From the IMG/VR virus record IMGVR_UViG_3300026549_000070: a stretch of 64,000 bases of DNA; one strand, 5' to 3'. Under the pieces are notes generated by a model that saw only the letters and a list, made by a program, of their open reading frames with translations, did no database searches and had not been told where the DNA came from. Made by a program: the position numbers and the translations under genes. Source of the DNA: a virus (lineage: Duplodnaviria; Heunggongvirae; Uroviricota; Caudoviricetes). Each line of letters begins with the position of its first letter. Within the stretch, counting starts at the first letter, position 1. This document shows, piece after piece, positions 24,710-62,360 of the stretch.

Positions 24710-24894
24710 GCCTTATCAACAGACAAACACGAAAGCCCAATGATGTTAATGTTGACCACATCGTTTCAATTTGGTCAGCAGATGACACAACTGGAGTTTG
24801 GGAAGTTACCCGATGCCGTGATGTAAATGGCATTGAATATGAAATGCCTATCCTAAAAGATTTATTTTTACAAAGAGTTGGCATAAAAAATTGA
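24700..24894 (+). CDS. hypothetical small protein (64 aa)
   Basis: ATG overlaps the previous stop (ATGTTCATAA). Confidence 0.3.
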   Translation: MFISLINRQTRKPNDVNVDHIVSIWSADDTTGVWEVTRCRDVNGIEYEMPILKDLFLQRVGIKN

Positions 24895-24930
24895 ACTTTT
24901 TAATTGCTTCTTTTATATTATTATCGTAAC
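24891..24930 (+). promoter_or_regulatory. class I conserved promoter
   Basis: ttgaactttttaattgcttcttttatattattat, followed by the aaaggagcaatttatg RBS and start. Confidence 0.55.
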
Positions 24931-29864: not shown

Positions 29865-30040
29865 ACACCTGACAGAGAGTTTGCATTGACTTATGAATAC
29901 GACTGTTGTGACTGTCTTGTTATGGGCCTTTTTACAGCAGACGGAATAAAAATGTACGGAACATATGATAAATTAAAAAGTTGTATTGAATTTAATGTAT
30001 TTGCAGACGGCGACCTTTTAGAAGATTTTTGCATAAATAT

Positions 30041-30080
30041 TTGAACTTTCAAATATTTGCTTTTATATTATTACTGTAAA
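30041..30080 (+). promoter_or_regulatory. class I conserved promoter
   Basis: ttgaactttcaaatatttgcttttatattattactg, followed by aaggagcaaattatg. Confidence 0.55.
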
Positions 30081-37592: not shown

Positions 37593-38489
37593 ATGGCAAA
37601 AATGACTGAAGCTCTCGGTGTTGAAAATGTTGAGAGCCTTGACAAAAATGACTATATAGAATTCCGCAATGAACTTAAGAGGAATGGATCACTCTCATCA
37701 AAGTTTGATGAAGAGTTCTTTAACGCAGTTTACCCAGGAAGCGGATATAAAGAATATGTTGCATCGGTCGATGAAGATCTCGGCAAGATTATTGAAGACG
37801 CAAAAGCAGGAAACGAATATGCAGAATGTTATTTGATTATTGCTGCTCGTAAGATGTGCTACTATGTCTTCTGGAAGGTATTCATTGGTTCTGCTGCTTC
37901 AGCAAAAGTTATTAAAGCTCGTCTTGATAATGGCGACTTCAATGATTTTATTGGAATTATGTATATTGCTTTTGATAAAGCAATTAAGAGTTTCAAGCCA
38001 AAAGTTTACAAAGATGGTACAATGAAGATTGGTAACTGGCAGTATTGGTTCGGTCAGTACCTTCGTATGGATGCAATCTCTGAAAACATCCAGCGTGCAA
38101 AAGATCCTAACGAAAACGCTTTGAATCCTGATGGAATGGACGATAGCGAAAAGGGCGGAGCAACGGCTTGGGATAAATTGACAGGAGACAATGCAACAGA
38201 ACTTGATGTTGACGACTTCTCTGCTGATTGGCGTGACTTCTGTAATGATCCTGAAATGAACGAATCTGCATCAAAGAAAGTAAATGTACCAAAAAGAAAA
38301 ATCCTTGCAATGGTTCTTAAAGGAAAGTCAATTCCTGAAATTGCTTCTGAACTTGATGTTGCAAAGAACACAATTTATGCTGCAATGAATGTTGGAGATT
38401 TGATGAAAAAGTACAACATTGACCAAGGCGAATTGGCACAGAAACTTCACAATGATCCTGATTTCATAATCGGTTGTTTGGAAAAATAA
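37593..38489 (+). CDS. sigma-factor-like protein (divergent sigma70 region 2 plus a region-4 HTH); candidate phage middle/late transcription factor
   Basis: NDFIGIMYIAFDKAIKSFKPKVYKDGTMKIGNWQYWFGQYLRM resembles sigma70 region 2.1-2.4. C-terminal ILAMVLKGKSIPEIASELDVAKNTIYAAM is a region-4-like HTH. Confidence 0.5.
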   Translation: MAKMTEALGVENVESLDKNDYIEFRNELKRNGSLSSKFDEEFFNAVYPGSGYKEYVASVDEDLGKIIEDAKAGNEYAECYLIIAARKMCYYVFWKVFIGSAASAKVIKARLDNGDFNDFIGIMYIAFDKAIKSFKPKVYKDGTMKIGNWQYWFGQYLRMDAISENIQRAKDPNENALNPDGMDDSEKGGATAWDKLTGDNATELDVDDFSADWRDFCNDPEMNESASKKVNVPKRKILAMVLKGKSIPEIASELDVAKNTIYAAMNVGDLMKKYNIDQGELAQKLHNDPDFIIGCLEK

Positions 38490-38741: not shown

Positions 38742-39198
38742 GTGTTTCCTTTGTTATTATATTATCAAAAGTAAAGATATCTTTCTTAATAAGATTGTAA
38801 GGCAACTTTTCCAACTCCTTTTTATGAATTGAAAAACCTTTATGATATAATTGTGACATTGATTCATCCCACTTAAAGATATACGCTCTTTTATTACCTC
38901 TACCGCAGTCAACACCTAAGATCACATAACACAAGACATTTTTTGCGTGTGAATATGATGCCAAATAGTCATTTTGCCACTCTCTTATATTTTTGAAATT
39001 AAATGCTGACATCTGCTTTAATACCTTAGCTTCCCAGCATACAAAATGAAGTTCATCATTTACTTTACGCATCCCAATCCCATCAAAACACCTTATAGAT
39101 GATTTTGCGCCATATTGAAATCCTGATTCATCTGGTATTTTATAGCCGTCAACTAATGAATGGACTACAATAGTACAAAATCTAGCTTCATTCCACAT
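38656..39198 (-). CDS. hypothetical protein (180 aa), possibly nuclease-like
   Basis: ORF only; no firm motif. Confidence 0.35.
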   Translation of the reverse strand: MWNEARFCTIVVHSLVDGYKIPDESGFQYGAKSSIRCFDGIGMRKVNDELHFVCWEAKVLKQMSAFNFKNIREWQNDYLASYSHAKNVLCYVILGVDCGRGNKRAYIFKWDESMSQLYHKGFSIHKKELEKLPYNLIKKDIFTFDNIITKETLVSIYGESIYDESNVSMSEVPKDLSKEV

Positions 39199-40396
39199 AC
39201 AATAAGTCCTCTCTTAAAATGTTTTTTGTTGACACAACATAATCAACAAATATTTTATAGTCTTTTGACCTCAATATTTTTATGTCGTTATTTTTCATAC
39301 ATTGATATTTTAATTTATATAGCTCGTCACACTCCGGAGACCTGTCCCAAGGATTTATAAAACTTTCGCCGTCAAAAAACATATCGCCTTTTAATTCATA
39401 AAATGTGTCACCTATTAAAAAGTCTGGAAAATATCTATGTTGAATCCCATTACATTCATATATAAAATAAGCTTCTGGTTGATATATAAAGTCAATATCA
39501 AAGTCTTCTAAAAATATGTAGAAGCACACCTCTGGATAAGAATCGAACATAATGTCATTATACACTAACTTTTTCTTTCTCTTTTTATTTATTATAGCCC
39601 ATTCTTCTGGAGTTCTTTTTTGAAGCGTTTCTCGTTGTTTAAGTTTTACACGCTCATTTTTAGCAGGATTCTCAAATCCGTAAGTTTCAATGAAATATTG
39701 CTTTCTGTGTTCAATAACGCTTGGGATTTTGAAATTATGGTCCACATTATATCTCGCTAAAAGAGCGTTTCTCCTTTTTTCAAAAATCTTTTTATCATAC
39801 TCACTATCAGATTCTCTTTTTGCGTTTATTGTTTGTCTGCTTTTATTTTTAATAACCTCTAAAAAATTAGGATCTTTACAATGCTCATAATAAGTTTGCT
39901 TTCTTTTTGCAATAACATCTTGTAAATATGATACATTTGTCACTCCATATTTTTCTAAAAGAGTGTTTTCTCTTGCTTCTTTCATACTGTTATATGCTTC
40001 ATCAATAGATCCATATTTTTTAGTCCAAGTCTCTCTTATTTTTTCTTTGACACTGCTGGCTTGAAATGAGCATTCACATCCATATTTTTCTATGCAAGTT
40101 TTAATACTCTTTTCTTTTACAACTTTTTTATAGTTGTCTAATGATCCATATTTTTCTATGCAAGTTTTAAGTCTCTTCTCATTTTTCACAGCTAAGTCAA
40201 CACTTTTTGCTGAAATCTTCATATTACAAGACTTACACACAAGGCTTTTGAAATTACCTAAAAGTCCCGTATAAGTTTGTCCACATACACTGCAAGTAAA
40301 ACTTACAGTCTGTCTTTGTGGGTAAGTTTGCTTTAACTTATCCACGTCATCAATAGATTTAATAAATATTGGTTCATCAGAAAACTTCTTTTTCAT
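39188..40396 (-). CDS. putative homing endonuclease with an N-terminal zinc finger, tandem ~30-aa xEKYGxxN repeats and a C-terminal PD-(D/E)xK-like nuclease motif
   Basis: CSVCGQ...CKSC. Repeats CIEKYGSLDN / CIEKYGCECS / TKKYGSIDE / LEKYGVTNV / IETYGFENP. C-terminal HRYFPDFLIGDTFYELKG. Confidence 0.4.
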   Translation of the reverse strand: MKKKFSDEPIFIKSIDDVDKLKQTYPQRQTVSFTCSVCGQTYTGLLGNFKSLVCKSCNMKISAKSVDLAVKNEKRLKTCIEKYGSLDNYKKVVKEKSIKTCIEKYGCECSFQASSVKEKIRETWTKKYGSIDEAYNSMKEARENTLLEKYGVTNVSYLQDVIAKRKQTYYEHCKDPNFLEVIKNKSRQTINAKRESDSEYDKKIFEKRRNALLARYNVDHNFKIPSVIEHRKQYFIETYGFENPAKNERVKLKQRETLQKRTPEEWAIINKKRKKKLVYNDIMFDSYPEVCFYIFLEDFDIDFIYQPEAYFIYECNGIQHRYFPDFLIGDTFYELKGDMFFDGESFINPWDRSPECDELYKLKYQCMKNNDIKILRSKDYKIFVDYVVSTKNILREDLLYVE

Positions 40397-40495: not shown

Positions 40496-41212
40496 ATGAA
40501 GGAATCTTTATTTGAAAGTATTTATATCGGCTCAAGATTAGATGAAACGAAAGTAAACGCGTATCGACATCATTCAAAAGAAGAAGCTGAAGCAGTTGTT
40601 GCAACCATTAAAGATTCAATTAAAAGATATAAGTTTGACATCATAAACCGCGATAAGAATCTCGACTTTATGCATAATGAAAAACTTGACAAGAAAACTT
40701 CAATGTACATTATTGATAAGTTTCTTGAGCCTCGTTCTCTTATTGCAGTTGTTCAGAACCGCAACAATCCTGATGAAGAACTTTATGTGTTCTCTGTTAT
40801 GGTTCCTGTTCGTGACAGAAAGAAATACATTTATTTGAAAGTATCAATGAGAAGTGATGGTGTTGTAAAAGCAATCAGTTGGCACGGACAAACTGAAATG
40901 ATGCATCCTGACTATCGTATGGCAGTTGATAAAAGTGATGATGATAACAGATACTTTTATCGTAAGCTGTTCCAAAACTGGGAAAGAGTTTACAACAAGT
41001 TTAATGATAACAAGATGGTAGACGTTTTGCCTAATGGTCCTGAGGATGTTACAATCGTGTTTGAACATCCTATAGACGATACAGAAGAATGGCGGAAAAA
41101 CTTCTGTAAAACTGTACCTAAAGATTATGGGTACCATTACAAAGATATTGAAAAGAATATGATAGTCGACAATGATTGTGTTCGACTTCATCTTACAATA
41201 GGGAGATTCTAA
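40496..41212 (+). CDS. hypothetical protein (238 aa)
   Basis: Plus-strand ORF starting at an ATG (ctaatatgaag) with no SD-like sequence upstream. Confidence 0.4.
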   Translation: MKESLFESIYIGSRLDETKVNAYRHHSKEEAEAVVATIKDSIKRYKFDIINRDKNLDFMHNEKLDKKTSMYIIDKFLEPRSLIAVVQNRNNPDEELYVFSVMVPVRDRKKYIYLKVSMRSDGVVKAISWHGQTEMMHPDYRMAVDKSDDDNRYFYRKLFQNWERVYNKFNDNKMVDVLPNGPEDVTIVFEHPIDDTEEWRKNFCKTVPKDYGYHYKDIEKNMIVDNDCVRLHLTIGRF

Positions 41213-41214
41213 AA

Positions 41215-41232
41215 TTTTACCGAGCGGTAAAA
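41215..41232. promoter_or_regulatory. 18-bp palindrome TTTTACCGagCGGTAAAA (putative operator O1)
   Basis: Perfect 8-bp arms; a second copy lies 50 bp downstream. Confidence 0.45.
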
Positions 41233-41264
41233 TTATACCAAAATACTATACATTTTAAGAAAAA

Positions 41265-41282
41265 TTTTACCGAGCGGTAAAA
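41265..41282. promoter_or_regulatory. second copy of the 18-bp palindrome (putative operator O2)
   Basis: Identical to the 41215 copy. Confidence 0.45.
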
Positions 41283-41298
41283 ATTTTTTGAAAAATAT

Positions 41299-41344
41299 GC
41301 GGACAAATTGAACTTTGTCCGCTTTTCTTTTATATTATTATTGT
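41299..41344 (+). promoter_or_regulatory. class I conserved promoter whose -35 hexamer is embedded in a 9-bp inverted repeat (GCGGACAAA-ttgaac-TTTGTCCGC)
   Basis: gcggacaaattgaactttgtccgcttttcttttatattattattgt. Confidence 0.5.
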
Positions 41345-41440
41345 CTGGTGCTAAACCAGCGTTGAACCGAGGAAGTTCCTCGGGGGATTCGGGGTTTGTA
41401 GGCTGACCCAAGGAGTGGGAAACCTTCGCCATTTTTCAAA
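41345..41440 (+). ncRNA. structured ~100-nt leader or possible small RNA downstream of the regulated promoter
   Basis: Hairpins ccgagg-aagtt-cctcgg and gggattcgggg; GC-rich relative to its surroundings. Confidence 0.25.
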
Positions 41441-41453
41441 CAAGGAGCATACT

Positions 41454-41654
41454 ATGAATAAAGCAAGAATTGCATCAATTCTTATTAAAGGCCGTAGAGA
41501 TCAAATCAATTCAGATCAGAAGATTGTTCACAACATCAACGGCTGGGAAGTTTCTTACAACAAAGTAGGAAAAGTTTTTGTTGCAGAGAAAGGCTCACAG
41601 AGAGTAATTCGTTCTAATGAAGCAATCTTGGCAGGAGTTCTTGCAAATGCTTAA
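41454..41654 (+). CDS. hypothetical small protein (start adjusted to MNKARIAS with RBS caaggagcatactatg)
   Basis: A strong SD directly precedes the ATG at 41454. Confidence 0.45.
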   Translation: MNKARIASILIKGRRDQINSDQKIVHNINGWEVSYNKVGKVFVAEKGSQRVIRSNEAILAGVLANA

Positions 41655-42919: not shown

Positions 42920-43298
42920 GGGCGTGAGTAATGGAATCGATTGGCTGAATAGTTCTTTAACATCAGGTAAAGGTGCCGACCTTAATACGGAAAAGAATAA
43001 CTGCAACTAAACGTTCAGTTGTTGCTCGTGGTTCACGCGCAGCTTTCGCTCGCGCTGCCTAAGGCAACACCTAGTTGGACCCTTTGAGGACCAACTGCGA
43101 CTTTCACGACTCAGATAGTGGAATGTTCGTATCGCCCATCTGATAAGTTGAACAAGAGTTGGGTTGCTTGCTCAGTTCAATCGAAAACTGAAAGTAAATA
43201 TGGGTTATGACCGTCCCTACCGTCAATTCGGTTTTAAGCCTGTAAAAAGTGTTATTGGGCAGCAGAGCAAGATTTGGGTTCGACACCCAACACGTCCA
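42920..43298 (+). ncRNA. ssrA: candidate tmRNA (ssrA-like), ~379 nt
   Basis: The 5' end GGGCGUG-AGUAAU-GGAAUCGAUUGG parallels the tmRNA 5' consensus GGGGCUG-AUUCU-GGAUUCGACGGG. AAGGUGC follows, then AAUAACU-GCA (compare the E. coli AAUAGUC-GCA resume context). A 19-codon frame follows (GCA...GCU GCC UAA). The 3' end is a T-arm UUGGG-UUCGACA-CCCAA plus CACGUCC-A that pairs with the 5' end, including a G3:U70 wobble and A73 (Ala identity). Confidence 0.55.
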
Positions 43299-43523
43299 GA
43301 TCCGCTATAAGATGAGATTCGGTTTTGCGGAGCCGACGATTTGAAGTGGACTTATTGTGAGGTTTTATCCGGAGAAACAATTCTCAGAATAAGCTGCGTT
43401 CAAATAACTTTTAATATCGTTTACTAGTATAAAAATGGCTGGCGATATTAAAAGAAACCAATGAATTATAAAAGCCATTTGCTCAATGGATGAAATAGTA
43501 GTTGAAATTGAGCACAAACTTAC

Positions 43524-43638
43524 GGGGCTTGCGGGCACTAGGATTGAGTTGGTCGCATTAAAAAATGGTACTGCGCGGGTCCAACGGAATAGGGACGCTC
43601 GGAAACGAGAGAACTGGGTTCGACTCCCAGGTGCGGAA
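43524..43638 (+). ncRNA. tRNA-like or tmRNA-like structured RNA unit with a canonical T-arm (unresolved fold)
   Basis: Starts GGGGCUUGCGGGCACUAGGAUUGAGUUGG and ends with the T-arm CUGGG-UUCGACU-CCCAG. Confidence 0.3.
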
Positions 43639-44243: not shown

Positions 44244-44334
44244 GCGGGTCTGATAAAGGTAGGGGTTAACCGTGACCACTGCGGAGTGTACATATGCTTT
44301 GGTGCTATGGCAGGTTCGAATCCTGCGACCCGCA
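44244..44334 (+). ncRNA. 91-nt tRNA-like element (perfect 7-bp acceptor GCGGGUC/GACCCGC, T-arm GCAGG-UUCGAAU-CCUGC); interior does not fold as a canonical tRNA
   Basis: Perfect acceptor and T-arm; a long interior. Confidence 0.3.
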
Positions 44335-44351
44335 TTATAAATACGAGAATT

Positions 44352-50344: not shown

Positions 50345-50598
50345 GCGTTTTTGAAAACGAAAAAGTTCCCAATTCTCTGTCTTGTACAGAGCCGCCTGAA
50401 ACTGGAATGTATTTGATACTTGGTACTTCCATCACAGGAAAGACCGAGTTCCAAATCGTTTATTATCGTACTGATACGAAAAAGTTTTATATGAATCTTG
50501 ACTGTCCTAAAGATCGTGACTTATCAGGATTTTGGCGGATTGAAGTAGAAGAATGGATTTTGTTGAAAAAATTGCCAATTTCTGCCTTTGAAAATTGA
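50335..50598 (+). CDS. hypothetical protein (87 aa)
   Basis: ATGGAATTAAG start overlaps the previous stop codon; no separate RBS. Confidence 0.35.
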   Translation: MELSVFENEKVPNSLSCTEPPETGMYLILGTSITGKTEFQIVYYRTDTKKFYMNLDCPKDRDLSGFWRIEVEEWILLKKLPISAFEN

Positions 50599-50641
50599 AC
50601 TTCTTAACGGCGTCTTTTATATTATTACTGTAAAACGCCGT
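50595..50641 (+). promoter_or_regulatory. class I conserved promoter with a 7-bp inverted repeat (ACGGCGT/ACGCCGT) flanking the -10 region
   Basis: ttgaacttcttaacggcgtcttttatattattactgtaaaacgccgt. Confidence 0.5.
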
Positions 50642-58496: not shown

Positions 58497-58552
58497 AAAT
58501 ATTTAAGAATTTTTTGAACTTTTTCAAACATTCTTTTATATTATTATTGTCA
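58496..58552 (+). promoter_or_regulatory. class I conserved promoter with an extended upstream element; this 54-nt block is repeated exactly at 60965..61018
   Basis: aaaatatttaagaattttttgaactttttcaaacattcttttatattattattgt. Confidence 0.55.
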
Positions 58553-58800: not shown

Positions 58801-58806
58801 TTTTTT

Positions 58807-58879
58807 GGTTCCTTCGAATAACTGGTTAATTCGCGAGCCTCTCAAGCTCGAAAAATGGGTTCAAGCCCCGTAGGAACCA
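58807..58879 (+). tRNA. tRNA-Glu (anticodon CUC)
   Basis: Full cloverleaf by hand: acceptor GGUUCCU/AGGAACC; D stem GAAU/AUUC; anticodon stem CGAGC/GCUCG with loop CUCUCAA; T-arm with UUCAAGC loop. Confidence 0.55.
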
Positions 58880-59008
58880 TATTTGACAACTTCGATGTAG
58901 ATGGCTACACAGAGAACGGGAAATATGAGGAGTTATACTCAACCGCTGGAAGCACCGGATGGTAAAGGCCTGTATATGACGACGCAGGATGAAGTCGATA
59001 CCGTCAAA

Positions 59009-59121
59009 GGAGAACATTAGTTCGAAAGCTCAAAAAGCAGTGCACGGCAAAGTAGAGCAGGGTCTAGAACGCTGGGTGTAGTATGCTCAGAAACTGAGGT
59101 TCGAATCCTCTATGTTCTAAA
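59009..59121 (+). ncRNA. tRNA-like element, 113 nt (acceptor AGAACAU/AUGUUCU plus T-arm); too long for a simple tRNA, so possibly intron-containing
   Basis: Perfect acceptor complementarity flanks the T-arm UGAGG-UUCGAAU-CCUCU. Confidence 0.25.
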
Positions 59122-59179
59122 GGTTGGCAACCAAACCTCTAAGGTTCCATACAAGCAGGAGCAATCTGTAAGGCTTGTT

Positions 59180-59266
59180 AAGTGCGATGAAGGAAAAAGG
59201 TAAGGCTTATACACCCTCTGGGTTGACGCACACTGAGAGCGGGTTCAATTCCCGACTGCACTTATA
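59180..59266 (+). ncRNA. tRNA-like element (T-arm GCGGG-UUCAAUU-CCCGA; acceptor AGUGCGA/CUGCACU with one mismatch)
   Basis: T-arm plus acceptor complementarity; the D arm is unresolved. Confidence 0.25.
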
Positions 59267-59271
59267 CTGAT

Positions 59272-59346
59272 GGTGGAAATTGTTGGATCCGTGAAGTTCG
59301 CAAGGCTGGAGTAACGGCAAGGTTCAAGTCCTTGTTTCACTTATAT
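59272..59346 (+). ncRNA. tRNA-like element (T-arm CAAGG-UUCAAGU-CCUUG; acceptor GGUGGAA/UUUCACU with G-U pairs)
   Basis: T-arm plus acceptor complementarity; interior unresolved. Confidence 0.25.
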
Positions 59347-59351
59347 CTTAC

Positions 59352-59440
59352 TCGGGAGTAAAGAGTAATTGGTACCTCCCCAGACTTTGATTCTGGTGAC
59401 GCATATCAGCGTCGTGCAGGTTCGAATCCCGCCTTCCGAA
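59352..59440 (+). tRNA. type II-like tRNA (long variable-arm hairpin GACGC-auauca-GCGUC) with an anticodon loop reading UUG; two extra nt before the D stem; identity uncertain
   Basis: Acceptor UCGGGAG/CUUCCGA; anticodon stem CCAGA/UCUGG with loop CUUUGAU; T-arm GCAGG-UUCGAAU-CCCGC. Confidence 0.3.
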
Positions 59441-59604
59441 CTAGGAGTTCATTAAACGTCACTATGGGTGAAAGTCCCATCAACCTCGCAGCAGTGATGC
59501 TACTCGTATGGCTTGCAAAAATCGAATGCAGGTAGCGGGGCTGTAGTTTGAGAAAGTAAAACCGGCAAGAACTCTTTCTCCTTACTAATTATTAAGAGGA
59601 CAAT

Positions 59605-60204
59605 ATGATTGAACAAAATGATGCACAAGAATGTTTAGACAGTTTGCTTGATAAGCTTGAGGATGCAGGTATTCCGTGTCCAACACTTTCTATAAATGTT
59701 GTCGACTTTGACTTCACAGGAATGAAAGCAAAGTACAACATTTCAGAAAAAAGTATTTCTGTTTGGAAAAAAGTTTCTAAAGAGGACTTGTCTAAATATG
59801 TTGCACACGAATTATGTCACGCATTTGAAAGATTGAATGGTGTCCCAGTTATTGTAGGCGGCGAACTTTCAGATATGTATGATGTAATCAACACTGACTC
59901 TTTGCGTCATAAGTTTATGAAGTTGATAAGTTTATTCCAAATTCTCTCAAGAGTTTGGACAAGCTTTGAAGCAGCAGAAAATTGCATCGAGAAGCTTGAT
60001 ACACTTATTGATGAGCTTTATGATATTGCCAGCGATGGCGATCCTGAGAACAAAGAGTTCTGCAAAGCTTTCTTTTCAAATTATGATAAGATTTATGACA
60101 GCGTAACTTATTATGCAGATGGCGGTCATAACGAAGATTTCCTTAATTGGAAAGATAAGTTATCAAAATTGTTTGGAATTGAAATTCCTACAGCAGAAGA
60201 CTAA
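59605..60204 (+). CDS. hypothetical protein (199 aa)
   Basis: RBS aagaggacaatatg. Confidence 0.45.
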   Translation: MIEQNDAQECLDSLLDKLEDAGIPCPTLSINVVDFDFTGMKAKYNISEKSISVWKKVSKEDLSKYVAHELCHAFERLNGVPVIVGGELSDMYDVINTDSLRHKFMKLISLFQILSRVWTSFEAAENCIEKLDTLIDELYDIASDGDPENKEFCKAFFSNYDKIYDSVTYYADGGHNEDFLNWKDKLSKLFGIEIPTAED

Positions 60205-60446
60205 AAATATGTTAATATAAAAATACGAAAAATAAATTACCACTCTTACATTTTTTAAGAGTGGTACTAATTGAAATATATTAAGGAAGGGTTATTAAAA
60301 ATGACTTCATTGTATTCATTGACAGCAGAAGTTCTCACAACAAGATCATTATTGAATAATGATGTTAGAACTGCTATCACTACAGATGAATACGATTATA
60401 ATGAAGAAGATACGAGGTTGCCTTAGAGAACTGAGAAATGTTTCCC

Positions 60447-60484
60447 TGAGGCAAACCGATGAAGGTTTGCCTTTTTTGTTTTAT
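60447..60484 (+). terminator. rho-independent terminator
   Basis: gaggcaaacc-gatgaa-ggtttgcct followed by tttttgtttt. Confidence 0.6.
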
Positions 60485-60513
60485 ACAAAAATTGCAAAAA
60501 AAATAAAAATTTT

Positions 60514-60550
60514 TGAACTTTGAAAAAACTTCTTTTATATTATTATTGTC
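60514..60550 (+). promoter_or_regulatory. class I conserved promoter
   Basis: ttgaactttgaaaaaacttcttttatattattattgt. Confidence 0.55.
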
Positions 60551-60584
60551 AAAACGCAATATTGTTTTTATAAAGGAGTAAAAC

Positions 60585-60893
60585 ATGAAAACAATTCATT
60601 TGGAAAACATTAAAAAAATTGATGGTAAGCCTTGCAAAATTATTTACAATGGAGCTTGTGCTTTTGAAATTGATGTCGATTATATGGACGGCAGACGAAA
60701 CCTTAATTATATCATCAATAAAATCTGTGAAACCAATACAGAAACTTTTGTTATTCGTCCAGGAGACAAAATTATTTCTGATGGTAAAACAGGCGAAATT
60801 GTAAAATACAGTGATTTTGCATACGGCATCGATTATGAGGACGGCAAATCAGGTGATTTTGAGTTTTTACCTGAATGTTTCAAGATACTTTAA
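60585..60893 (+). CDS. hypothetical early protein (102 aa)
   Basis: RBS taaaggagtaaaacatg. Confidence 0.5.
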   Translation: MKTIHLENIKKIDGKPCKIIYNGACAFEIDVDYMDGRRNLNYIINKICETNTETFVIRPGDKIISDGKTGEIVKYSDFAYGIDYEDGKSGDFEFLPECFKIL

Positions 60894-60921
60894 TTGCTCC
60901 TTATAATTTGTTGTTCTTAAG

Positions 60922-60960
60922 CTCGAGAAACGAGAAAACTTATTTCTCGAGTTAATTATT
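60922..60960 (+). terminator. probable terminator
   Basis: ctcgagaaa-cgagaaaacttat-tttctcgag followed by ttaattatt. Confidence 0.4.
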
Positions 60961-60964
60961 GACA

Positions 60965-61018
60965 AAAATATTTAAGAATTTTTTGAACTTTTTCAAACAT
61001 TCTTTTATATTATTATTG
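60965..61018 (+). promoter_or_regulatory. class I conserved promoter (exact 54-nt repeat of 58496..58549) driving the downstream tRNA array
   Basis: Identical 54-mer; the first tRNA begins ~50 nt downstream. Confidence 0.55.
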
Positions 61019-61065
61019 TAAACTGATACAAAAGGTTTACAACAAAAGAAGGAAACTTCAAATAT

Positions 61066-61138
61066 GGTTCCGTAGATCAACTGGTTAGATCGCGGCCCTT
61101 TCAAGGCTGAAATCCGAGTTCAAGTCTCGGCGGATCTA
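61066..61138 (+). tRNA. tRNA-Glu (anticodon UUC), with one U-U mismatch in the acceptor
   Basis: Acceptor GGUUCCG/CGGAUCU; D stem GAUC/GAUC; anticodon stem CGGCC/GGCUG with loop CUUUCAA; T-arm CCGAG-UUCAAGU-CUCGG. Confidence 0.5.
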
Positions 61139-61144
61139 AGAACG

Positions 61145-61224
61145 TTAAACGGAATAAAATAACAGCTTGGTTGCTGCCACCTCGTGGTATCGTTCGGTGG
61201 AAGGTTCGAATCCTTGAAAAAGCA
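61145..61224 (+). ncRNA. orphan T-arm-containing tRNA-like fragment
   Basis: GAAGG-UUCGAAU-CCUUG, but no complementary 5' acceptor was found upstream. Confidence 0.2.
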
Positions 61225-61273
61225 TACGGGTAATTCTTTTCCTTGCAAAAGGTTTCTTATACCTAGAATTTTT

Positions 61274-61312
61274 GGGGTATTGGTGGAGTTGGCTACCACG
61301 CTAGCCTGTGAT
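61274..61312 (+). tRNA. 5' half of a tRNA-His-like gene (acceptor GGGGUAU, D-arm GUGG-AGUUGGCUA-CCAC, anticodon stem CUAGC and loop CUGUGAU, so anticodon GUG), interrupted after the anticodon loop
   Basis: Canonical 5' half by hand; the 3' anticodon strand GCUAG does not follow here but is found at 62008, downstream of the inserted ORF. Confidence 0.4.
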
Positions 61313-61328
61313 ATATACTAATTATTAT

Positions 61329-61988
61329 ATGAGAGAACAGAAAAACGCATATAACAATTGGAAATGTACAGTTTGCGGAAATGTTTTTAGAACAAGAGCT
61401 TTGCTTCAAACTCATAGAAAAGAGCAGCATAGTGAAATTAAGATGACGTCTAGTTTTACAGACTTAATTTCTTATGATTGTCCTTTTTGTGGAAGGCATA
61501 GAGCTAATGTTAGAAGATGCGCTAAATCAGCACATATTTTACATTGTTCTAAAAACCCAGACAGAGTTCCTAAAAAGGGGCATAAACTGTCTGATGAACA
61601 AAAAAAGCTTATTTCTGAAAAAATGAAAAAAGCACATCTAGAAGGACGTGCTGGGACATTTCCTTCTAGAAAAAATTGTGAGCACAGCTATCCAGAAAAA
61701 TGGCTAATTGGTGTTCTTAATAGAGAGCTTGGTTTTATAGAAGATAAAGATTATAAAACTGAGTATTTCTTTCATAAACAGTTTTTAGATTTTGCTTGGC
61801 CAGAAAGAAAATTATGTATTGAAATTGATGGTCAACAACACGAAAGATTTGTTGAAAGAAAATTAAATGATGCTAAAAAAGATGAAAATCTTAAAGCAGA
61901 AAATTGGAAACTTTTAAGGCTTAGGTGGTCTGATATTTGTAATAATACCCAAGAGTATATTCAGCAAATATTAAGTTTTCTAAAATAA
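61329..61988 (+). CDS. homing endonuclease-like protein (C2H2-type zinc fingers, a NUMOD-like motif, and a DUF559/Vsr-like endonuclease domain) inserted within the tRNA array
   Basis: WKCTVCGNVFRTRALLQTHRKEQH; KGHKLSDEQKKLISEKM; FLDFAWPERKLCIEIDGQQH...LLRLRW (the DUF559 signature). Confidence 0.6.
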   Translation: MREQKNAYNNWKCTVCGNVFRTRALLQTHRKEQHSEIKMTSSFTDLISYDCPFCGRHRANVRRCAKSAHILHCSKNPDRVPKKGHKLSDEQKKLISEKMKKAHLEGRAGTFPSRKNCEHSYPEKWLIGVLNRELGFIEDKDYKTEYFFHKQFLDFAWPERKLCIEIDGQQHERFVERKLNDAKKDENLKAENWKLLRLRWSDICNNTQEYIQQILSFLK

Positions 61989-62007
61989 ATGGTTTTGCAA
62001 GCAGCAG

Positions 62008-62062
62008 CTAGCAGGTCAGACTGTTTATCGGAAGGTCGCGAGTTCGATGCTCGCATATCCCG
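62008..62062 (+). tRNA. candidate 3' portion of the split tRNA-His-like gene: GCUAG complementary to the 5' anticodon strand, a 25-nt spacer, T-arm GCGAG-UUCGAUG-CUCGC, and acceptor 3' strand AUAUCCC complementary to GGGGUAU
   Basis: The acceptor 3' strand pairs with the 5' half at 61274, with G-U pairs allowed. The long spacer is atypical for tRNA-His. Confidence 0.3.
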
Positions 62063-62067
62063 CTACC

Positions 62068-62124
62068 GACAATAGGAACCGACGATAAGATGTTGACAAT
62101 AGGTTCCGACGATAGGGAATATTT
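62068..62124. repeat. four tandem ~11-bp direct repeats (CCGACAATAGG / CCGACGATAAG / TTGACAATAGG / CCGACGATAGG)
   Basis: Seen directly in the sequence between the tRNA-His 3' part and tRNA-Asn. Confidence 0.5.
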
Positions 62125-62199
62125 GCTCCGTTAGCTCTTAACGGTTAGAGCGGAGGACTGTTAATCCTAAGGTTGCAGGTTCGAATCCTGCACGGAGCG
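62125..62199 (+). tRNA. tRNA-Asn (anticodon GUU)
   Basis: Clean cloverleaf: acceptor GCUCCGU/ACGGAGC; D stem GCUC/GAGC; anticodon loop CUGUUAA; T-arm GCAGG-UUCGAAU-CCUGC. Confidence 0.65.
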
Positions 62200-62276
62200 T
62201 AAAGTTTGAAAGTCAATATATCTTTTGAACGAGCTGCTATACTTCCGTCCAGTCTTAGAAGTAGTTCACAGTTTTT

Positions 62277-62348
62277 GGTTCCGTCGGCTAACGGCTAGGC
62301 CATCTGGTTTTCATCCAGAGAACGAAGGTTCGACTCCTTTCGGAACTG
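62277..62348 (+). tRNA. tRNA-Glu (anticodon UUC), second copy
   Basis: Acceptor GGUUCCG/CGGAACU; D stem GGCU/GGCC; anticodon stem UCUGG/CCAGA with loop UUUUCAU; T-arm GAAGG-UUCGACU-CCUUU. Confidence 0.55.
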
Positions 62349-62360
62349 TACATTATGCTT

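Follow-up and report, generated by a model that had tools for sequence, protein, structure and literature searches.

An orphan pair of predicted HipB-type operators, a terminator fused to a promoter and a conserved leader RNA in one intergenic region of an uncultured giant phage

In an uncultured giant phage, the gap that separates a 238-aa gene (40496–41212) from a 66-aa gene (ATG at 41454) on the + strand, which carries the two genes, contains two identical 18-bp palindromes. By analogy with bacterial operators, and on the basis of their sequence, their geometry, the genomic association of similar pairs and one experimental analogue, we conclude that these palindromes are a predicted operator pair of the HipB (Y4mF) type. 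The window, that is, the whole stretch of DNA that was analyzed, comprises 64 kb of a genome of roughly 260–300 kb, and the gap is probably a junction of three independent modules (the orphan operator pair, a terminator-promoter and a leader RNA) in a hypervariable part of this giant-phage genome. The first-pass annotation had described the gap as a single, elaborately regulated promoter; three separate modules were found in its place. The terminator-promoter is an ordinary arrangement of a known kind; what was unexpected is the conserved leader RNA and the orphan HipB-type operator pair with its recurrence in unrelated phages. From the sequence identities, associations, conservation and covariation described below, we infer what kind of protein would bind the palindromes and what functional consequences each module would have.

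Relatives of the window phage were found only as metagenomic contigs of 259–300 kb from gut-type samples, and none was detected among 50,697 phage records by megablast, blastn or tblastn. The window encodes a DnaB-type helicase, an RNA ligase, a RecU-like resolvase, homing endonucleases, ThyX and nine to ten tRNAs. The 238-aa gene, identified from the ORF list, has its stop codon 2 nt before the first palindrome; no function was assigned to it, as no match was obtained in Pfam or PHROG, and its homologues in giant-phage contigs show 91% and 50% identity. At the other end of the gap, a ribosome-binding site (AAGGAG, 41442–41447) precedes the ATG at 41454 of the 66-aa gene (41442–41654 together, + strand), in agreement with the earlier reading of the sequence and with the ORF list. 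Fifty metagenome homologues of the 66-aa protein, with identities of 71–97%, were all without annotation, and Pfam and PHROG searches gave no match. The genes directly 5' of the promoter vary between close relatives, which carry the 238-aa gene alone or gene sets of 238 and 121 aa, 238 and 180 aa, 397 and 88 aa, or 233 and approximately 200 aa.

The palindrome TTTTACCGAGCGGTAAAA occurs exactly at 41215–41232 and 41265–41282, against an expectation of 0.05 copies in shuffled sequences. The exact identity of the two copies had been reported before and was confirmed here; a search for further copies, which the first-pass annotation had proposed, returned none in the 64-kb window with up to three mismatches allowed, and beyond the window it returned similar pairs at bacterial hipB-linked loci and in approximately 13 viral groups. 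Each copy is an imperfect palindrome with 8-nt arms and a non-symmetric AG centre, and its core reads TTACCG-AG-CGGTAA. Reading rightward, palindrome 1 is the distal site and palindrome 2, 50 bp from the first, is the proximal site; a 32-bp spacer (41233–41264), read from the sequence, lies between them. The + strand of this spacer carries only weak promoter-like hexamers, and no convincing promoter was found on that strand between the palindromes. The − strand holds an extended −10 element, TGGTATAAT, at 41232–41240.

Close relatives keep the paired sites at a distance of 49–50 bp, usually in the forms TTTTACCGA(A/G)CGGTAAAA and TATTACCGAACGGTAAAA. Among ten distinct sequences of the window clade, only 1 of 24 core columns was variable, as compared with 15 of 36 spacer columns (Fisher p = 0.001). 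In relatives L035–L038, an 88-aa ORF lies between the palindrome pair and the terminator-promoter; it begins 17 nt after site 2, and its ribosome-binding site is 6 nt past that site. One palindrome arm is mutated in L039, just half a palindrome site is left in L052–54, and the palindromes are absent from L051, clade B and clade C, in all of which the promoter and the leader are unchanged. This loss and degradation fits a dispensable or decaying element.

The assignment to the HipB type came from a scan of 185,579 bacterial and archaeal genomes with the pattern TACCGNNCGGTA-N34-40-TACCGNNCGGTA, which yielded at least 120 matches in many phyla, as compared with approximately 4 expected by chance. 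Among the matches listed, the spacing was sharply peaked, with 63 loci at 50 bp and 29 at 49 bp, and at 64 of the approximately 105 loci with a spacing of 48–51 bp an HTH gene of 67–90 aa started 0–84 nt from the pair. The HTH proteins adjoining the bacterial pairs score over the NCBIfam cut-off of TIGR03070 (“type II toxin-antitoxin system Y4mF family antitoxin”). Again among the matches listed, 54 of the 64 HTH genes are followed by an ORF of at least 90 aa, approximately 40 of these ORFs being 400–430 aa long, and the two ORFs 3' of bacterial HTH genes that were scanned both belonged to the HipA family. In these bacterial operons the paired sites enclose the −35 and −10 elements, the latter directly next to the proximal site. 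An operator consensus, aTTACCGnnCGGTAAta, was built from 51 bacterial hipB-linked pairs, and both window palindromes match it as a TTACCG-NN-CGGTAA dyad with A/T-rich flanks; their start-to-start spacing of 50 bp coincides with the bacterial peak (50 and 49 bp). Such a spacing would put two HTH dimers on one face of the DNA. The half-site of the window differs from that of the E. coli HipB site, TATCC-N8-GGATA. Among viral Y4mF loci with sequence available upstream, 5–6 of 17 likewise carry an operator pair in that position. The consensus would also give HipB repressors of the large Y4mF branch an operator sequence.

The experimental analogue is Legionella HipB (8EZT), the closest solved relative of the pair-linked HTH proteins. 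In EMSA, this protein bound 18-nt operators that are evenly spaced, contain 6-nt inverted repeats and overlap the promoter, and the E. coli HipB site is composed of five-nucleotide repeats (PMC10653801). The Legionella sites, as given by the oligonucleotides of that study, include TTACTG-CTATAA-CAGTAA and TTACCG-TGATAA-CAGTAA (PMC10653801). The window palindromes and the Legionella pneumophila operators O1–O3 have in common the half-site TTAC(C/T)G / C(A/G)GTAA, the dyad form and the even spacing of the copies, although the centre is 2 nt long in the window and 6 nt in Legionella. The operator-type character that the first-pass annotation had ascribed to the palindromes was thus supported, both by the sequence and 50-bp geometry of the Y4mF hipB pairs and by the Legionella half-site. 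In bacterial hipBA modules the proximal copy overlaps the promoter, from a few to approximately 70 nt from the hipB start, whereas the window pair has no clear promoter between its sites. The window pair further differs from hipBA and hipBST promoters in its location on a phage, with neither hipB nor hipA nearby.

A minority class of pairs was also found in bacteria: among the matches listed, 17 loci have perfect TACCGATCGGTA dyads that adjoin TetR regulators and efflux pumps, and the core alone therefore cannot name the binder. A TetR-type operator was rejected for the window sites, as their AG centres and conserved outer T/A bases fit the HipB class; no TetR gene was detected in the window by the Pfam scan.

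We examined whether the pair belongs to a regulator gene of its own. No Xre-type HTH was found among the 79 window ORFs by a Pfam scan, an HMM built from the 64 bacterial HTH proteins had no match in the 64-kb window, and no HipA was found in the window either; the pair is therefore an orphan and not a hipBA promoter. The palindromes adjoin the terminator-promoter instead of the Y4mF hipB gene followed by hipA that would mark such a promoter. In IMG/VR, the exact 18-mer was found only in a close relative and as single chance matches, and a scan with the single-site pattern TTACCGARCGGTAAA likewise gave mostly single chance matches; a second site 48–50 bp away was present in approximately 13 unrelated viral contig groups. 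These include a T4-like phage with the sites 5' of a clamp-loader gene, a contig with the sites 5' of a terminase-like gene and a 192-kb contig with the sites 5' of tRNAs. An adjacent HTH gene was found in 1 of 14 phage groups as compared with 64 of 105 bacterial loci among the matches listed (p = 0.0002). In several phages, 3–5 nt separate the stop of the upstream gene from site 1, and 17–25 nt lie between site 2 and the start of an unrelated gene. Because this layout of gene, pair and unrelated gene recurs, the pair behaves as a portable promoter-operator cassette. BLAST clustering revealed no shared family among the genes adjoining the viral orphan pairs, and the small ORFs 3' of the orphan pairs had no Pfam match.

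The window pair would be bound by a repressor of the HipB type that acts in trans and comes, in the simplest case, from a hipBA module of the host. The leading ideas for what binding would do are a roadblock to, or repression of, weak transcription through the palindrome spot; alternatively, the pair may be a remnant promoter-operator cassette that would drive the 88-aa gene in some relatives, or may serve as a sink for HipB-HipA complexes. It is conceivable, though rather improbable on our own estimate, that orphan HipB operator pairs serve diverse phages as a means of engaging host HipBA, as DNA sinks or as sensors. In the sink mode, the many copies of phage DNA would hold HipB-HipA complexes operator-bound and inactive; in the sensor mode, a phage gene under HipB control would be turned on when the labile antitoxin vanishes and toxin action is imminent. 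Kinases of the HipA family were recently validated as anti-phage defences (PMC13092281), and HipA relatives also have a match in PADLOC, to a candidate defence family; the idea that host HipB or the HipB-HipA complex binds the pair is therefore worth testing. Either mode, if true, would represent a DNA-based device for counter-defence or eavesdropping, and if host HipB binds the orphan pairs, they would be phage cis-elements plugged directly into a host toxin-antitoxin circuit. Such phage-host cross-talk has not been described as far as our literature search reached, the only relevant hit to the site sequences being a study of the TetR regulator AibR.

The pair might alternatively be a relic of a hipBA-type promoter-operator cassette that lost its gene and has no present function in the window phage, a reading that we regard as possible but doubtful. 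The downstream gene of such a cassette is missing from the window, where a transcript would reach the terminator after approximately 35 nt, and relatives L035–L038 retain an ORF at the expected position; the mutated site of L039, the half-lost sites of L052–54 and the absence of sites from L051 point in the same direction. Decay alone, however, hardly explains why intact orphan pairs recur in approximately 13 unrelated phage groups, and the core half-sites are far better conserved than the intervening 32–36 bp in the ten distinct sequences mentioned above.

It is unlikely that the sites are bound by a regulator encoded elsewhere in the phage genome of approximately 260–300 kb as part of a phage-internal circuit. 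The window covers only 64 kb of this genome, small proteins without annotation are numerous in giant phages, and a 298-aa protein encoded 3 kb upstream (37593–38486), syntenic in relatives, has a weak C-terminal match to an HTH or sigma region 4. This protein, however, represents another HTH class, and no Y4mF or Xre-type HTH is present in the window. Moreover, an IMG/VR scan for Y4mF HTH proteins with a single stringent peptide pattern, which a divergent regulator could escape, detected 18 loci, of which only L146 and L014 lie on orphan-pair contigs and none on the 259-kb relative contig.

The second module begins with a 9-bp inverted repeat, GCGGACAAA-TTGAAC-TTTGTCCGC, at 41299–41322, whose 6-nt loop is the −35 hexamer (41308–41313). 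The presence of a −35 element inside a 9-bp repeat had been noted correctly in the first-pass annotation. Its interpretation as operator-like symmetry did not hold, since the repeat is followed by a T-tract and, in the clade-B relative L044, the stem is swapped for another complementary sequence, AGCGCAAAAA-TTAAAC-TTTTTGCGCT, which is the behaviour of an RNA hairpin and not of a protein site. The repeat is an intrinsic terminator, with a 9-bp stem (41299–41307 paired with 41314–41322) containing five G-C pairs (ΔG −12.5 kcal/mol) and the T-tract TTTTCTTTT at 41323–41331. The consensus scan scored it as an intrinsic terminator on the + strand (41299–41331), in line with folding and conservation, and the stem is kept in clade A. 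Placed on the same strand as the 238-aa gene, 87 nt past its stop codon, it has a G+C-rich stem, a short loop and a T-tract; it is the single terminator between this stop codon and the next gene, and the 238-aa gene is the one that it serves. An Rfam match to the L20 leader was just the terminator itself.

The loop and the T-tract double as the −35 element and the spacer of a class I promoter (41308–41343, + strand), which was recognized by a promoter scan and by its membership in a repeat family; it comprises TTGAAC at 41308–41313, a 17-nt spacer, TATATT at 41331–41336 and a conserved ATTATTG downstream. The transcription start is predicted near 41343. The G+C-rich hairpin with its T-tract would end the upstream transcript, making a compact terminator-promoter cassette. 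The class I promoter is a repeated phage promoter of the sigma-70/sigma-A type, and the eleven copies counted previously were recovered as 11 strong copies, with one weak copy in addition, of TTGAACTTT-N11-TCTTTTATATTATTaTTGTAAA, all on the + strand of the window. Most copies are followed within 15–30 nt by a ribosome-binding site and a start codon, and one copy by a tRNA. The first-pass annotation had singled out the copy at 41308 as the only one with symmetry. This was partly correct: AT-rich inverted repeats surround the −35 elements of other copies, such as one of 11 bp at 30041, and at 50595 the −10 element is flanked by a G+C-rich repeat of 7 bp, but the copy at 41308 is the sole one with a terminator-grade, G+C-rich stem at −35.

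The first-pass annotation had also proposed that the palindromes and the −35 repeat are operators through which a repressor switches the class I promoter in a repressed-early or immunity-like circuit. The palindromes are indeed operator-type dyads, conserved in several relatives and located 5' of a strong promoter. Their centres, however, are near −70 and −120 from the predicted start and do not cover the −35, the −10 or the start; the terminator hairpin intervenes between them and the promoter, as does the 88-aa gene in L035–L038; and neither the promoter nor the leader is altered where the sites are absent (L051 and clade B). The T-tract and the exchanged stem of L044 stand against a protein site at the −35 repeat as well, and nothing points to immunity or lysogeny, so we consider the proposed switch very unlikely. 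Since the pair is absent or separated by a gene in relatives and lies beyond the terminator, it is a separate module and is unlikely to switch the class I promoter.

A function of the palindromes at the RNA level, within the 3' UTR of the 238-aa gene, as two hairpins or one inter-copy stem acting as terminator, stabilizer or RNase III site, is highly improbable: the region 41200–41340 folds far better than shuffles (z = −5.7), the copies are able to form a joint stem (ΔG about −21 kcal/mol) and a T-run follows palindrome 2, but exact palindromic repeats give good fold scores by construction, the single hairpins are weak (ΔG −5.0 kcal/mol), no compensatory changes occur and the mutated copy of L039 is uncompensated, and the same motif with the same 50-bp spacing lies 5' of bacterial hipB around promoters, which indicates a role at the DNA level. 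Terminators, an RNase III stem, the ends of a miniature mobile element and an integron attC-like site were each considered for the palindromes and rejected as a misfit with the hipB-linked, promoter-bracketing distribution in bacteria. LexA, NrdR, TyrR and CsoR boxes were set aside on the same ground.

The terminator-promoter resembles the PeSL (promoter-early stem-loop) elements described in T4-like phages, in which promoter and terminator form one composite cassette (Arbiol et al. 2010, PMC2839356; Comeau et al. 2014, PMC4122927). PeSLs include subclasses with a stem-loop overlapping the −35 element and mark regions of gene gain and loss (PMC2839356; PMC4122927). As in PeSLs, a repeated, strong sigma-70-like promoter is fused to a stem-loop that ends upstream transcription, and the element lies 5' of small orphan genes at a place where relatives differ by gene insertions and deletions. 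It differs in that the window phage is not T4-like and that the other class I copies carry AT-rich repeats and not terminator-grade stems. The parallel is good for the copy at 41308 and only suggestive for the whole class I family; the terminator-promoter fusion would extend the PeSL idea past T4-like phages.

The third module is a conserved, structured leader RNA (41343–41432, + strand), recognized from its presence in four clades, from covariation and from a covariance model. Transcripts from the class I promoter would begin with this three-hairpin RNA of approximately 90 nt. On the + strand, the leader consists of P1 (41345–41359), the joiner CGUUGAA (41360–41366), P2 (41367–41383), the joiner GGGAUUCGGGGUUUGU (41384–41399), P3 (41400–41425) with the Shine-Dalgarno-like loop CCCAAGGAG at 41407–41415, and a U-rich tail (41426–41437). 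Its G+C content is 56.7%, as compared with 25% in the adjacent spacer and 37% in the window. The earlier description of a GC-rich leader with stable hairpins was borne out with respect to the hairpins, which are conserved and covarying, but folding of the single sequence was no better than that of shuffles (z = −0.01).

Conservation of the leader extends to all relatives and to three other clades: one with another gene 3' of the leader than in the window clade; a divergent giant-phage lineage (clade C), first found beside the 50%-identical homologue of the 238-aa protein, in which a canonical terminator follows the leader; and one represented by one truncated contig. All share a common plan of P1, a joiner ending in UGA(A/G), P2, a joiner ending in UUCGGGGUUUGU, and P3, followed by a U-rich tract or a terminator, and the apical sequence of P3, CCCAA(G/A)GAG, is near-invariant and Shine-Dalgarno-like. 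In 17 sequences, the 20 pairs of the model were 98.3% paired, and 14 of them showed changes on both sides, whereas only 33–53% were paired when the pairing partners were slid by one to three columns as a control; the underlying alignment of the four lineages was made by hand, N-padded and fitted to the structure, as MAFFT had misaligned the leader clades. An extra helix between the joiners (UGAA with UUCG) was 96.5% paired with no both-sided change and is accordingly unproven. The covariance model found a single copy in the window, with 61 bits, the next match scoring 12.7 bits. None of 4227 Rfam families matched 41343–41432 on the + strand at gathering scores, and at E values up to 10 the matches were chance-level only.

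When the complete 5' UTRs of six family members were folded by minimum free energy, no consistent alternative that would sequester a Shine-Dalgarno sequence or act as antiterminator was seen, nor was a consistent expression platform. The leader resembles riboswitches, attenuators, the put RNA of HK022 and the EAR element of Bacillus in being structured and in beginning at or near the transcription start; for put and EAR, both antitermination RNAs, the likeness is one of position alone. As with other regulatory leaders, a U-rich tract, or in clade C the canonical terminator, follows it, and it stands before different genes in different phages; it differs from riboswitches and attenuators in that no consistent switching hairpins were found. 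The invariant joiners and the Shine-Dalgarno-like apical loop suggest that the leader binds a factor or an RNA. Most likely, it works in cis, by attenuation or by control of translation, or else is set free as a small RNA, and it is a candidate for a new cis-regulatory leader or small RNA. The leader adds a candidate new family of structured RNAs that is conserved across divergent giant phages.

Inverted symmetry at the class I promoters, the repeated phage promoter family with a TTGAAC -35 hexamer, was not confined to the copy at 41308, although the first-pass annotation had described this copy as unique in that respect. On the plus strand, a 7-bp G+C-rich inverted repeat (ACGGCGT...ACGCCGT, 50607-50641) flanks the -10 and the start site of the class I promoter whose TTGAAC lies at 50595, which contradicts the claim. 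AT-rich inverted repeats are also centred on the -35 hexamers of class I promoters at 30030-30053, 24885-24907, 58508-58533 and 60977-61002, all on the plus strand, as exemplified by AAATATTTGAA-CT-TTCAAATATTT at 30041. These AT-rich repeats could represent weak stem-loops of the kind found in PeSL, the promoter-early stem-loop cassettes of T4-like phages, or could be part of promoter recognition.

Three sites of the HipB type were found in L190, a T4-like phage contig (2210-2272), where two full sites 50 bp apart are accompanied by a central ATACCGTTCAGTAT, and a clamp-loader (gp44-like) gene lies directly downstream. Some of the phage copies have the form TTACTG..CAGTAA, with symmetric C-to-T and G-to-A changes in both arms, as observed in the phage loci L121, L158, L175 and L177 (site 2) and in L190 (site 3). 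This half-site variant is shared with the Legionella O1 operator, which has been validated by EMSA. A second class of paired dyads, TACCGATCGGTA, was detected in bacteria (loci L238, L246, L274, L286, L287 and others); these pairs bracket the promoters of TetR-family regulators with adjoining RND efflux genes, and are of the same type as the published AibR site. In the window itself, a perfect extended -10 element, TGGTATAAT, occurs on the minus strand at 41232-41240, immediately upstream of palindrome 1 when read in that orientation. Transcription from this putative element would enter the 238-aa gene (40496-41212) in the antisense direction; the element is not conserved in the relatives.

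Among the neighbouring genes, a 298-aa protein encoded on the plus strand (37593-38486) showed weak matches in its C-terminus to GerE/LuxR, HTH_38 and sigma-70 region 4; a PHROG annotated as an RNA polymerase sigma factor was also matched weakly. Its synteny is kept in all close relatives, and we regard it as a candidate phage transcription factor. The 402-aa DUF7487/homing-endonuclease-like gene on the minus strand (39188-40396) contains four 41-nt direct repeats, 66-69 nt apart (39943-40184), which encode a repeated KYG peptide motif. Because it is missing from most relatives, this gene is probably a mobile insertion adjoining the variable region.

Downstream of the operon under the 41308 promoter lies a 1.1-kb G+C-rich stretch without ORFs, in which the Rfam tmRNA model matched a tmRNA-like gene on the plus strand (42920-43301). 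The score, 40.2 bits (E 3.5e-14), falls short of the model's gathering score, 47. The gene, for which ARAGORN made no call, contains a tag-like reading frame terminating in ...ARAA-stop. The same stretch holds two more tRNA-like T-arm and acceptor ends on the plus strand, at about 43610-43635 (GGGTTCGACTCCCAG) and 44295-44337 (GCAGGTTCGAATCCTGCGACCCGCA); neither was called as a tRNA by ARAGORN or Rfam, and the two may belong to tRNA-like RNAs that are interrupted or otherwise unusual.

Three of the nine tRNAs called by ARAGORN (58806-62349) are tRNA-Glu, one with CTC and two with TTC. Glutamyl-tRNA synthetase is inactivated by E. coli HipA, and this correspondence may be a coincidence. A Pfam scan of 79 ORFs of the window further identified a BspA-type leucine-rich-repeat protein (E 3e-55), as well as ThyX, thymidylate synthase, dCMP deaminase and R2K ATP-grasp proteins, a set of nucleotide-metabolism and surface proteins that is unusual for a phage.
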